The position numbers and the translations under genes were made by a program. The notes under the pieces were generated by a model. The model did not search any database, was not told the DNA's origin, and was given only the letters and a program-made list of their open reading frames with translations. DNA of 8,788 nucleotides. Origin: a virus. Location: UHGV virus genome UHGV-1374307; one strand, given 5' to 3'. Positions 1 through 5,592 of this stretch are shown here, one piece after another; positions within the stretch are counted from its first letter, which is position 1; the number at the start of each line of letters is the position of its first letter.

Positions 1-26
1 GGATTCGATTTTCGCAGCGGCCTTTT
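1..26. terminator. 3' half of a bidirectional terminator hairpin that spans the window junction
   Basis: CGCAGCGGCC (13-22) is the exact reverse complement of the last 10 nt of the window (8779-8788), leaving a 12-nt loop (1-12) and a downstream TTTT (23-26), if the molecule is circular. Confidence 0.5.
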
Positions 27-27
27 C

Positions 28-56
28 AACATAACGAGTCGTACATTATGCGCACC
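28..56 (-). other. dif-like Xer recombination site A (candidate attP half)
   Basis: Minus strand reads GGTGCGCATAA-TGTACGACTCG-TTATGTTGAAA. Left arm is 11/11 identical to the E. coli dif XerC arm and right arm 9/11 to the XerD arm TTATGTTAAAT (dif quoted from memory), but the central region is 11 nt instead of 6. Confidence 0.6.
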
Positions 57-3193: not shown

Positions 3194-3535
3194 TTAAATC
3201 ACCCTGTTTGCATAATCAAGAAATTTTTGTTTTAAATCGAAAACAAAAACACTGATACGAGTAACCATAATAACGTTAACACACGCCTGAAAATGGTCAG
3301 GCAATACAGACGCCATTAAATGGGAGAAATCAGCAGGTAAACCGTTATACATGACCTCAGCAAGGTACTGCATTAAAAGCGTAACAGTTGTTGTAATTAA
3401 TGCGACCAATGCAAAGGCGATTAATCCTGTTCTGGTAGCAAGTCGAGCTAAAAAACTCGCCACATAGCCAATAAACAAAGGAACAAGACCAATAAGAAAA
3501 CGCAACAATGCAGGAATACCCAATAATAAAGGCAT
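3194..3535 (-). CDS. VI: Minor coat protein pVI (113 aa)
   Basis: [14 protein letters not shown]... vs Ff pVI MPVLLGIPLLLRFL...; C-terminal FVFDLKQK vs Ff FIFDVKQK. Preferred start is ATG 3533-3535, overlapping the gIII stop (TGATG); the track begins one codon earlier at GTG 3538. Confidence 0.9.
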   Translation of the reverse strand: MPLLLGIPALLRFLIGLVPLFIGYVASFLARLATRTGLIAFALVALITTTVTLLMQYLAEVMYNGLPADFSHLMASVLPDHFQACVNVIMVTRISVFVFDLKQKFLDYANRVI

Positions 3536-4782
3536 CACTCACCCCCTTTGCGAAGCAATGAAGTTAAAGAAGTAAAGACATACCAGAACGTAAGGCAATA
3601 AAAAACCCATGAAAGAACATCTTTAATAGTCAGTAATTTATCGCAACCAATATCAATCTGATAAACCTCTCCGGGAAATATAATAAAATCAGAGCAGCCG
3701 TTACCATTGGGTAAATTAGGCAGCATAGCACCTTTATTTAAAAATGCTTCCCATAAAGCACCGTGAGAATCCTTTTCAATTCCCAATTCAGAATCAGCCA
3801 AAGTAGAAGCGCCATCTAATTCAGAGTCGCCCTTTCCATAACGAGAATCACCACCTGAAGGGTCAGCAAAACGGCCAGCCCCCCGCGTAAGATTGTTAAT
3901 GGAATCGTCAAGACGATTTATATTATTCCTGGTTTGTTCATCGGCATTTTTTTTATCATCTGATGAAGTGTCTTTCTCCGTTAATTTATCATGAATATCG
4001 CTGGCTATTTTGGGTGAAGCACCTTCGATCGCAGACTGAATATCACCTTTAGAAAGACTGGAACCACTAGAGTCACCGCCAGAACTACCGCCAGAACTAC
4101 CGCCACCGGACTCACCACCGCCAGACTCACCACCGCTGGACTCACCACTGCCAGACTCACCACCACCATTTTGGGGGGTTGAGGGTTTATCAGAGGGGTC
4201 AGCTACAGCACCTGTAGGCTTCCATGTTGCAGCGCAAACAGTACCATCACCCTGACAAACAATGACACCAGTAGCCTCATATTCACAGCCGTTATAGTAG
4301 ATATAGCGACCACCATCATATGAATCAACATTATTAAATACACCTTCTTCTGGCGGCTTCGCTTCACAAATTTCTTCTGGTGTCGGGTCAGTAGGTTTTT
4401 CATCAGGAACAGAACGCTGAATATTACCAACAATATAAGCCGTTAAAGACCAATATTTATCCTTCTGCCCTGGTGAATCGCTGTAAGTACAATCGCCAGT
4501 AAAAACAAGACGGAATTCAGAATCAGGCCAGATACCCTCATAAGTTGGTTTAATCCGAGTAAATACACTCTGAGCACTGGATTTAGCACCCTGACAAGCG
4601 GAGGCCTGCATAGCAGCATCAATATAGTAAACCGTTATCTTAGAGCCATCCTGATTGGTTATTTGCTTACTTTCAGCGTAGGCAGAACTTTGATAAGTGG
4701 ATTTAGTAATGCTTTCCCATGACTCAGCATGTGAAAAAGGAGAAATGAGGACAGCGGAAAGAATTAATATTTTCCTTCTCAT
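3535..4782 (-). CDS. III: Adsorption/minor coat protein pIII (415 aa)
   Basis: True start is the internal ATG at 4780-4782 ([19 protein letters not shown] signal peptide); the track ORF is an upstream read-through. Contains an Ff N1-like TolA-binding motif ([31 protein letters not shown] vs Ff RYANYEGCLWNATGVVVCTGDETQCYGTWVP), a Gly/Ser/Glu-rich linker, and a C-terminal membrane anchor (CDKLL...[20 protein letters not shown] vs Ff CDKINLF...FMYVFSTFANILRNKES). Confidence 0.9.
4072..4168 (-). repeat. Tandem imperfect 12-15 bp repeats encoding the pIII Gly/Ser/Glu linker
   Basis: Plus strand reads CACCGCCAGAACTAC CGCCAGAACTAC CGCCACCGGACTCACCACCGCCAGACTCACCACCGCTGGACTCACCACTGCCAGACTCACCACC; encodes [31 protein letters not shown]. 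Confidence 0.8.
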
Positions 4783-4791
4783 AGTAACCCG

Positions 4792-4819
4792 CTTTAATAA
4801 AGGGGCAACGAGTGCCCCT
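4792..4819 (-). terminator. Rho-independent terminator between gVIII and gIII
   Basis: On the coding strand: AGGGGCA-CTCGT-TGCCCCT followed by TTATTAAAG, immediately after the gVIII stop and before the gIII start; same position as the strong post-gVIII terminator of Ff phages. Confidence 0.8.
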
Positions 4820-4828
4820 GAGTGAAAT

Positions 4829-5071
4829 TCAAACCGCTTTTGAAGAGAATTTTTTGAAAATACGAATGGCAAGCCCAGCGCCAACCACAGCAACAACAAC
4901 AGGCCATACTTTACCAATGAGATCATTTGCCTGAGTCAACAAAGCATCCATTGCCTGACCTGCATAATCAGTACCACCTGTAGCGCCTTCAGCCGCAAAA
5001 GAACTTGCAGAAATAAAAAGCGCAGTTGAAGCCAAAGCAATTTTATATTTAACAGTAGACAGAATTTTCAT
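4829..5071 (-). CDS. VIII: Major coat protein pVIII precursor (80 aa; signal peptide ending SFA, mature ~54 aa)
   Basis: [26 protein letters not shown] / AEGATGG...[25 protein letters not shown]: signal peptide, acidic N-terminus, hydrophobic core and basic C-terminal tail typical of Ff/IKe coat proteins (the KKFSSKAV tail is IKe-like, from memory). SD GGAG 8 nt upstream of ATG 5069-5071. Confidence 0.95.
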
Positions 5072-5090: not shown

Positions 5091-5186
5091 TTACATTAAT
5101 CGGTCAGAAAATGATTTAAATGAACCGACCGCATAGAAAAGGGCAAAACCAAAGGTATAAGCCCCGAAGAAATAAACGATATACAT
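5091..5186 (-). CDS. IX: Minor coat protein pIX-like (31 aa)
   Basis: ATG 5184-5186 overlaps the gVII stop (TAATG). Product MYIVYFFGAYTFGFALFYAVGSFKSFSDRLM resembles Ff pIX (MSVLVYSFASFVLGW...YFTRLM...). It is the C-terminal 31 aa of track ORF 5091..5315. Confidence 0.7.
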   Translation of the reverse strand: MYIVYFFGAYTFGFALFYAVGSFKSFSDRLM

Positions 5187-5272
5187 TAACGAAAGACCCC
5201 CGCAGTAATCGCGCCAAGGCCAAAAGAAATAACGATGCCAGACGCTATCAAAATTTGAATAACATCGTCCAT
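5186..5272 (-). CDS. VII: Minor coat protein pVII-like (28 aa, hydrophobic)
   Basis: Hand translation from ATG 5270-5272: MDDVIQILIASGIVISFGLGAITAGVFR, stop TAA 5186-5188. Small hydrophobic peptide between gV and gIX as in Ff. Below the ORF-track size cutoff. Confidence 0.6.
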   Translation of the reverse strand: MDDVIQILIASGIVISFGLGAITAGVFR

Positions 5273-5274
5273 AT

Positions 5275-5592
5275 TTAACCTTTGATCTCTGCGATGCCAC
5301 CATCGGAAGCAACATTATAAGTTACACCTTCCCTACCCTCCATTGACCACGCACGGACATAGACAGGAATTTGAACTAATTTCCCAATGAAAGCATTCGC
5401 CTGGTTCATTAGACCTGCGTTAACGAGAGCCTGAGAAACTCGAATAATAATTTGATCCTGCTTTGTACCACCAAAACCATCAGGTATTTCAAGGCCAATA
5501 CCAATTTCATTATAATAGCCCTGACCATTAACTTTATTACGTTGGCGGGCTCCCAACATTTTACCCTTAACGAAAAGACCATAATTAGACAT
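5275..5592 (-). CDS. V: Putative ssDNA-binding protein at the gene V position (105 aa)
   Basis: ATG at 5590-5592 with AAAGGAAAGTAAT upstream; sits exactly between gII/gX and gVII as in Ff. Sequence shows no clear similarity to Ff pV beyond a loose R...G.GY...L[DE] pattern, so the call rests on synteny. Confidence 0.55.
   Translation of the reverse strand: MSNYGLFVKGKMLGARQRNKVNGQGYYNEIGIGLEIPDGFGGTKQDQIIIRVSQALVNAGLMNQANAFIGKLVQIPVYVRAWSMEGREGVTYNVASDGGIAEIKG

Follow-up and report, generated by a model that had tools for sequence, protein, structure and literature searches.

The attachment region of the phage CTXphi contains two inverted dif-like sites, attP1 and attP2, which lie ~90 bp apart, have centres of 12 nt and 5-7 nt, and do not work as duplex (PMC4246890; sequences in PMC3089051). 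The tropism of CTXphi depends on the bases next to the XerC arm, which must match dif, the rest of the centre being free to differ (PMC4246890, PMC3089051). YpfPhi of Y. pestis and CUS-1Phi of E. coli O18:K1:H7, a lineage with ~99% nucleotide identity over a 7.1-kb core (PMC4266046), are described with inverted XerC/XerD sites like those of the CTXphi attP, and the CTX-like model for Ypf is worded as 'proposed' or as sites that 'may constitute' the substrate (PMC4266046, PMC3089051 and PMC4246890 for both).

In the UPphi group, an IKe/I2-2-like core is combined with a gII/gV module common with Ypf; gIV is followed by two additional small genes, and ORFs in reverse orientation adjoin dif. E. 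coli, Salmonella, Klebsiella and Citrobacter serve as hosts, the prophages stand in tandem at dif and end in a 15-base dif repeat, and membership is set at ≥75% nucleotide identity to UPphi901 over ≥1 kb (PMC7307601). 'A copy of the dif site' is the expression used in the same paper, from which the words hairpin, inverted and attP are absent (PMC7307601).

The window, the whole stretch of 8,788 nt of viral DNA analysed here, carries a 94-nt block (8751-8788 joined to 1-56) that is in all likelihood the attP of a temperate IKe-like (UPphi-type) phage, most likely working in the manner of the CTXphi attP(+). As in CTXphi (Val et al. 2005, summarised in PMC4246890 and PMC3089051), two dif-like sites with centres of unequal length, long in one and short in the other, stand in inverted orientation, neither is usable as duplex, and the strand of the long-centre site is presumably the one found in the (+) ssDNA. 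The TGT by the XerC arm likewise matches the host dif, dif is regenerated, the prophages form tandem arrays and no integrase is encoded. In CTXphi the centres measure 12 and 5-7 nt, the intervening DNA ~90 nt and the attP(+) ~150 nt; in the window phage the centres measure 11 and 5 nt, the intervening DNA is a GC-clamped hairpin of 32 nt and the attP(+) spans ~94 nt. The arms correspond to the enterobacterial dif and not to V. cholerae dif1, and the phage core is of the IKe kind, not the CTX kind. VGJphi-type and TLCphi-type elements also use the host XerCD and integrate at dif, but do so reversibly through a single attP, a duplex of 28-29 bp whose spacer is canonical (PMC4246890), in contrast to the two non-canonical sites found here. 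Integron attC sites resemble the proposed substrate as folded ssDNA hairpins on which a tyrosine recombinase carries out a single exchange resolved by replication (PMC3089051, PMC4792948); their recombinase is IntI and their sites are others, and the likeness is one of analogy only. The mechanism is not a new one, as it is already known from CTXphi and has been proposed for Ypf; here it is re-derived in a phage group for which the literature compared had not spelled it out, extending CTXphi-style integration to the IKe-like UPphi phages of E. coli, Salmonella and relatives.

The core genes of the window follow the order gII (Phage_CRI/G2P), gV, a 74-aa ORF, gVIII, gIII, a gVI-like gene (DUF5455), gI (Zot) and gIV (secretin). 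The pI protein is 65.9% identical to that of IKe and 63% to that of I2-2; pII is 56% identical to that of I2-2, with no match in IKe, and the nucleotide-level match to IKe is confined to 189 bp of gIV. An initial annotation made from the sequence had called the phage IKe-like, with which these identities (66% for pI, 56% for pII) agree, and had stated that no integrase is encoded; no integrase, resolvase or transposase domain was found in the ORFs scanned with Pfam and PHROGs. Its remark that Ff/IKe-type phages are strictly episomal is outdated, the IKe-like UPphi being a published dif integrator (PMC7307601). The position of the two cargo genes is occupied by other genes in related prophages. 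Among the cargo and accessory proteins, PADLOC detected no defence family, and PHROGs matches fall only into families of unknown function; the exact cargo proteins occur mostly in Salmonella enterica and E. coli.

The window phage shares with UPphi (UPphi901; PMC7307601) an IKe/I2-2-like core at about 65% protein identity, a gII that resembles those of I2-2 and Ypf and not that of IKe, two extra small genes after gIV, reverse-oriented ORFs by dif, occurrence in E. coli and S. enterica, and tandem integration at dif with the far end marked by a 15-base dif repeat. The core in IKe/I2-2 order, with the identities given above, and the I2-2/Ypf-like gII agree with the delimitation of the group, for which roughly 65-70% protein identity and a gII/gV like that of I2-2 and Ypf are taken as typical. 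Because gene content, identities, hosts and integration at dif all fit the published group properties, the window phage is probably a member of UPphi. With YpfPhi and CUS-1Phi it has in common the use of the same dif and the tandem arrays. The attP of Y. pestis NCTC5923 has the site A, stem and loop of the window without a change, its differences being confined to the outer bases of the XerC-like arm of site B. The attP identity and the size had suggested that the window is YpfPhi/CUS-1Phi itself. This was ruled out, as the NCTC5923 locus shares little with the window and aligns only over the attP (96%), gII (79% nucleotide identity) and two short stretches. The core identity that marks the YpfPhi/CUS-1Phi lineage is not found in the window, which shares the attP module and a diverged gII; most of the remaining locus is unaligned, and the cargo genes differ. 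An E. coli circular replicon with the left-end sequence of the Y. pestis phage carries a DUF2523-type gVI-like gene.

Anatomy and predicted fold of the attachment region

In E. coli, dif has the sequence GGTGCGCATAATGTATATTATGTTAAAT (PMC2731167), as the initial annotation had assumed. Sites A and B are inverted around the GC stem and lie about 32-40 nt apart across the circular junction, with the ends of the genome falling within the hairpin loop (Table 1). Site A has 15 nt, TACATTATGCGCACC, in common with dif. The initial annotation had read this region as a CTXphi-style folded attP, and the anatomy, the in silico fold and the dif junctions are as it predicted. The coordinates and TGACG centre of site B, the inversion of the two sites around a hairpin, the spacers of 11 and 5 nt and the exact XerC arm are found in the sequence as it described them. 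For site A, which it placed at 28-56 on the minus strand, the strand and the end are borne out, and the start lies at 24. Single arms with ≤2 mismatches occur at chance-level counts; for the composite XerC-spacer-XerD site with ≤4 mismatches, 4/300 dinucleotide shuffles stand against the 2 sites observed here. A search of the whole window against Rfam at gathering thresholds returned no family.

Table 1. Positions of the phage genes and of the elements of the attachment region in the window
Feature	Position	Strand or length	Description
Core filamentous-phage genes	826-6698	minus	Pfam/PHROGs scans; RefSeq annotation of near-identical prophages
74-aa ORF	5091-5315	minus	Similar to a small virion protein in its C-terminal part
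Two cargo genes (98 aa and 262 aa)	7657-8743	plus	Directly upstream of site B
Site B (attP2-like, short spacer)	8751-8777	plus	GATGCGCACAA-TGACG-TTATGCTAAAG; 11-5-11 spacing
Site B XerC-like arm	8751-8761	plus	GATGCGCACAA; 9/11 against E. coli dif
Site B central region	8762-8766	plus	TGACG, 5 nt
Site B XerD-like arm	8767-8777	plus	TTATGCTAAAG; 9/11 against E. coli dif
GC stem, 5' arm	8779-8788	10 bp	GGCCGCTGCG
Hairpin loop	1-12	12 nt	Variable among relatives
GC stem, 3' arm (plus-strand numbering)	13-22	10 bp	CGCAGCGGCC
Site A (attP1-like, long spacer)	24-56	minus	GGTGCGCATAA-TGTACGACTCG-TTATGTTGAAA; 11-11-11 spacing; strand presumably present in viral ssDNA
Site A XerD arm	34-24	minus	TTATGTTGAAA; 9/11 against E. 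coli dif
Site A central region	45-35	minus	TGTACGACTCG, 11 nt
Site A XerC arm	56-46	minus	GGTGCGCATAA; 11/11 against E. coli dif
Predicted XerC cleavage/strand-exchange point	45-46	minus	Border of XerC arm and central region

In tandem prophages of E. coli UR21/11-869, the sequence reads ...gaggccgctgcg|ggattcgatttt..., which makes positions 8788 and 1 contiguous. Since tandem copies run from 8788 into 1, sites A and B are truly adjacent. A related phage is a circular replicon of 9565 bp, in which site B, hairpin and site A are likewise contiguous. The initial annotation had allowed that the molecule might not be circular; the tandem read-through shows it to be circular or tandem across the hairpin.

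The core genes all lie on the minus strand, and the packaged (+) strand is accordingly taken to be the minus strand of the window. A minus-strand segment of 103 nt folds as DNA with a minimum free energy of -30.3 kcal/mol (z = -6.6, 0/200 shuffles as good). The fold is the forked hairpin that had been expected of the viral strand, with the bulge of 7 nt versus 1 nt seen in the centroid structure and a XerC-side helix of 13 bp that includes two G:T pairs, both as annotated. On the XerD side, where 12 of 14 positions had been called paired, the 14 positions hold and the tally does not: 11 are Watson-Crick, 2 are G:T and 1 is A.C. This A.C mismatch and the two wobbles of the folded XerD arm were counted against the attP(+) reading, as was the bulge, which is more asymmetric than that of CTXphi.

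Conservation of the attachment block

A pattern made of GGTGCGCATAA, 8-14 nt and then TTATGTT, with no hairpin required, retrieves 34 viral contigs, nearly all of which carry the GC stem and an inverted site B. Together with E. coli prophages of other lineages, which differ in their replication proteins and gIII and have DUF2523-type gVI-like genes, these contigs give 24 distinct attP variants. The conserved block is 94-95 nt long and bounded exactly by the two XerC arms, with unrelated flanks. Site B is kept in 24/24 variants, and the sequence beyond its XerC-like arm is unrelated. The spacers measure 10-11 nt and 5 nt. The TGT by the XerC arm and the CG by the XerD arm are invariant (24/24), the dif centre being TGTATA, and the 5-7-nt bulge and the loop are free to vary. 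The GC stem is nearly invariant, with a single change in each of three variants (L010, L014, L029). One nearly invariant block of 94 nt is therefore common to several otherwise unrelated enterobacterial filamentous phages, YpfPhi included.

Across the 24 variants, the proposed structure leaves 95.7% of cells paired, against 32-52% when the partners are slid. The non-Watson-Crick cells comprise 77 G.T at 8 positions and only 14 A.C at 1 position, and the viral strand folds better than its complement in all 24 (mean -31.7 versus -29.6 kcal/mol). Alignment columns 1-11 and 23-29 are invariant by construction of the search pattern, and shuffle statistics overstate significance because the arms are nearly invariant and the variants related. 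Covariation is thin, with 2 pairs changing on both sides in the alignment; in a Rosenbergiella genome, a compensatory change from CG/CG to CA/TG lies at the base of the XerD helix. Two contigs (L013 and L019) and a Pseudomonas genome (L055) show a long-spacer site, a hairpin and an inverted short-spacer site, with hairpin sequences that are unrelated. In a scan of the genome collection, the long-spacer pattern occurs at 45 loci, compared with ~60 expected by chance, and an inverted partner is found only at enterobacterial and Pseudomonas matches and on two probably mis-binned MAG contigs.

The conservation bears on whether site B could be a fossil, that is, a scar left by a previous Xer event or by a tandem neighbour, with site A amounting to a mere 15-nt homology to dif. 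Hundreds of E. coli records contain remnants with site B and the hairpin but no site A, as such a history would leave them, and the UPphi paper noted only the 15-base dif repeat (PMC7307601). A scar would drift, however, whereas the arms have stayed complementary across lineages to the extent given above, their changes are mostly wobble-compatible on the viral strand, the difference between long and short spacer is kept in every lineage, and the crossovers described below are precise, at the XerC border. Among the intact phages examined, no integrating variant naturally devoid of site B was found. A fossil origin is thus very improbable.

Integration at dif and the predicted strand exchange

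Prophages covering ≥80% of the window are present in 46 complete E. coli genomes, adjoining hipA, where dif lies; in 800 genomes the site is empty, the query of left flank, dif and right flank matching in one piece. In E. coli UM146, the left junction reads ATTTAACATAA-TATACA-TTATGCGCACC followed by the window from position 57 onward, which is a perfect dif, and the right junction consists of site B, the hairpin and TTTTCAACATAA-CGAGTCGTACA-TTATGCGCACC, followed by host DNA. The left junction, with a perfect dif fused to position 57 onward, occurs in 49 genomes, and the right junction, with hairpin, site A and host flank, in 174, the latter being commoner because the attP is common to other phage lineages. 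All prophage copies are circular permutations opened at 45/46, and the core identity to the prophages begins at position 42. Two Salmonella assemblies hold single copies with 98.6-98.7% identity. The enterobacterial host and the integrated copies next to dif with hybrid junctions, both anticipated in the initial annotation, are thereby found in E. coli and in Salmonella, and integration next to dif through a crossover at site A, leaving a perfect dif and a hybrid junction, is supported.

In both Salmonella copies, the arm at the regenerated dif is of phage type (..GCGCACC). At the other junction, the arm reads ..GCGCATT in one assembly and ..GCGCACT in the other (AATGCG.. and AGTGCG..), and it varies together with a diverged host flank. 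The crossover interval delimited by these copies extends over 13 nt, from position 3 of the XerC arm to position 5 of the centre, and includes the canonical XerC cleavage point at 45/46. The variant arms are probably host-derived, and the native XerC arms of the two Salmonella lineages (L088 and L089) would then be AATGCGCATAA and AGTGCGCATAA. This origin is read from the co-variation of arm and flank, as an empty Salmonella dif was not recovered: an exact-pattern scan of metagenome contigs gave none, a looser dif-variant scan gave ≥120 loci with none bearing Salmonella flanks among the matches listed, and the supplements of Kono et al. contain no Salmonella entry. In the looser scan, XerC arms with AGT or AAT are frequent among the dif sites.

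Tandem arrays are common, and single copies also exist. The arrays would be expected if the phage entered mainly by homologous recombination with resident prophages instead of by Xer, a route that has been raised for superinfection by Ypf between resident copies (PMC4266046). Recombination of this kind cannot account for the first integration into an empty dif, and the single-copy prophages of E. coli UM146 and Salmonella have precise dif junctions, so that it is the least probable of the explanations considered.

Elements of the CTX type are characterised by a single exchange on ssDNA catalysed by XerC, a XerD that is required in a non-catalytic role, resolution through replication, irreversible integration, and virions produced from tandem arrays by the rolling-circle mode. 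The attP(+) reading is hypothesized to operate as follows. In the packaged single strand, which corresponds to the minus strand of the window, site A would pair with the complement of site B, and the GC stem of 10 bp would clamp the two sites in register. The pairing would rebuild one dif-like duplex, with a XerC arm of 13 bp including TG/CA and a XerD arm of 14 bp. Its central region would be paired at the edges only, 7 nt being bulged on the top strand and 1 nt on the bottom strand, the latter provided by the complement of site B in the viral strand. Host XerC would then cut the viral strand after GGTGCGCATAA, between 46 and 45, and the cut strand would be exchanged with the top strand of the chromosomal dif. 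The invariant TGT, matching the first bases of the dif centre TGTATA, would stabilise the exchange. XerD would be unable to finish the exchange, homology being absent from the remainder of the centre, and replication would probably turn the intermediate into a prophage. The product would have a perfect new dif at one end and, at the other, a dead hybrid site composed of the host XerC arm, the 11-nt centre, the phage XerD arm, the hairpin and site B. With a live dif on one side and a dead hybrid on the other, integration would be one-way and presumably irreversible, and successive events would build tandem arrays, which would explain the pile-up of prophages next to dif and hipA. The exact boundaries of the prophage are set by the border of XerC arm and centre, at 45/46.

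The junctions also bear on the strand that folds. They sit at site A, and the top strand of this site belongs to the sense strand of the core genes; had the complementary strand folded, site B would be expected to hold the junction. Because duplex DNA exchanged at site A would yield identical junctions, the single-stranded step is inferred from other features. The identical topology suits an alternative of the VGJphi type, in which the double-stranded replicative form would integrate through a duplex site A by a XerC-only exchange and site B and the hairpin would serve another purpose. For such a route, the duplex centre of site A would be 11 bp long. Functional Xer sites have a centre of 6-8 bp, and neither the 11-nt spacer of site A nor the 5-nt spacer of site B provides one. 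The 12-bp centre of CTXphi attP1 is unsuitable as duplex for the same reason of spacing (PMC4246890). A duplex route further leaves without explanation the conservation of site B in every variant up to its XerC-like arm and not beyond, the excess of G.T over A.C, which is strand-specific, and the maintenance of the inverted pair around unrelated hairpins in L013, L019 and L055. The 11-bp spacer, a site B conserved as far as its outer arm, wobbles biased to one strand and the recurrence on unrelated hairpins all point to a single-stranded substrate, on which XerC would catalyse the exchange. The VGJphi-type route is accordingly considered improbable.

As an example of such another purpose within that route, site B and the hairpin could terminate transcription in both directions where the cargo and core units converge. 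The GC stem lies between convergent genes, with TTTT after it on the plus strand and TCTTT on the minus strand. When the tandem junction was scanned for terminators and promoters, no call was made at the hairpin, since its 12-nt loop exceeds the limit of the scan; the result speaks neither for nor against a terminator. Within the attP(+) reading, the GC stem may also terminate transcription between the convergent genes. The folded block offers a compact substrate for trials of E. coli XerCD on folded ssDNA.

Cargo cassettes and a possible portable module

The distribution of the block raises the question of whether it travels with neighbouring sequence. In ~690 E. coli genomes, cassettes composed of a 45-nt element, cargo and the site B-hairpin segment are found both on large plasmids and by hipA/dif; between the conserved ends, the cargo is exchanged precisely, as with a SIR2 gene and a STM4504-family gene. 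The attP(+) block might belong to a portable module that passes between unrelated enterobacterial inoviruses and persists in the absence of a phage core, although this is regarded as rather doubtful. Such a module would run from the 45-nt element through one or more variable cargo genes to site B, the hairpin and site A. Its shuffling could possibly occur by rolling-circle read-through across mixed tandem arrays at dif. The cassettes, rather than being debris, could be satellite-like elements that are mobilised by a helper phage and carry defence-type genes.

The 45-nt element (7529-7573) is identical to part of the major intergenic region of If1. A tie between this element and the type of pII was considered and rejected, as If1 gave no pII match. 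Taken alone, the element is weakly structured (z = -1.6).

The cargo slot and its boundaries

The genes between a 45-nt element and site B, the plus-strand dif-like site of attP, occupy a swappable cargo slot. In the window, the slot encodes two uncharacterised proteins of 98 and 262 aa; the prophage of E. coli UM146 carries an ECs_2282-family zinc-binding protein and a hypothetical protein at this position. Other copies hold STM4504/CBY_0614-family, SIR2, PD-(D/E)XK or Doc-toxin genes. The cargo differs between L003 and L004, although both flanks are common to these two loci at ~98%.

Coordinates of the cargo slot, its boundary element and the attP remnant
Feature	Locus	Position	Details
Cargo slot	Window	7657-8743	
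Cargo slot	L002	11550-12304	
Cargo slot	L003	5054-5995	
Cargo slot	L004	7642-8994	
45-nt element	Window	7529-7573	GGGAAACCACGGTAAAGTTCGGGTGTCACAGAACCCCGAACCGCT
66-nt remnant	L003	6001-6066	Plasmid NZ_CP189961.1
66-nt remnant	L004	9001-9066	Chromosome, adjoining hipA

The similarity among relatives ends at the 45-nt element, which lies at the boundary between core and cargo. The element is found in many related inovirus contigs, whatever their core lineage. E. coli carries it in 687 genomes, and 429 of the places are on plasmids. Its identity is 100% to a portion of the If1 phage 'major intergenic region' and 97.6% to Alteromonas phage phiAFP1. Rfam contains no match for the element, and when folded alone it forms only weak structure; our guess would be an origin or packaging signal. 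Within the core, annotated near-identical prophages encode gIII attachment proteins (window 3535-4926) of 411, 421, 430 and 440 aa, a length variation consistent with reports on the UPphi group of dif-integrating inoviruses, in which the glycine-rich linker varies in its repeats.

Remnants and arrays of attP

The 66-nt remnant retains site B, the hairpin and, from the minus-strand partner site A, just the XerD arm; the remainder of site A is destroyed. Approximately 700 E. coli records contain it at ~92% identity; 487 of its places lie on large plasmids and lack any phage core genes. The chromosomal copy, directly adjoining hipA, lies as expected of the oldest insertion at dif. A truncated attP was also observed in one viral contig (L032, 4419 onward), where site A runs into the first GC-stem arm and then into unrelated sequence.

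In the single genome of E. coli EC5502 (NZ_CP092647.1), 13-17 separate places match the phage or its junctions, which suggests either an assembly artefact or an array of unusual length or dispersal. In L006 (minus strand; 2553 and 10005), which belongs to a different phage lineage, the two copies of one tandem array carry unlike XerD-like arms of site B (TTTTTTACATAA versus TTTTTACACATAA), and arrays are therefore not always clonal.

Related sites in other contigs and genomes

L013, L019 and L055 (Pseudomonas sp. S30) combine a GGTGCGCATAA site (9-10-nt spacer) and an inverted partner site with a stem-loop of 40-60 nt that is unrelated in sequence, apparently representing independent versions of the inverted-pair attP architecture. 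Six contigs of a Candidatus Saganbacteria MAG (L067-L072) carry an identical TATATA-GGTGCGCATAA-TTAAATAGACA-TTATGTTTAC located ~105-135 nt from the contig end; this repeated element contains a dif-like site with an 11-nt spacer, and the contigs showed no inverted partner. The enterobacterial attP, together with an E. coli-like host flank, also occurs on contigs binned as a Candidatus Nanosynbacter MAG (L054) and a Ruminococcaceae MAG (L075), a placement that probably reflects mis-binning or contamination.
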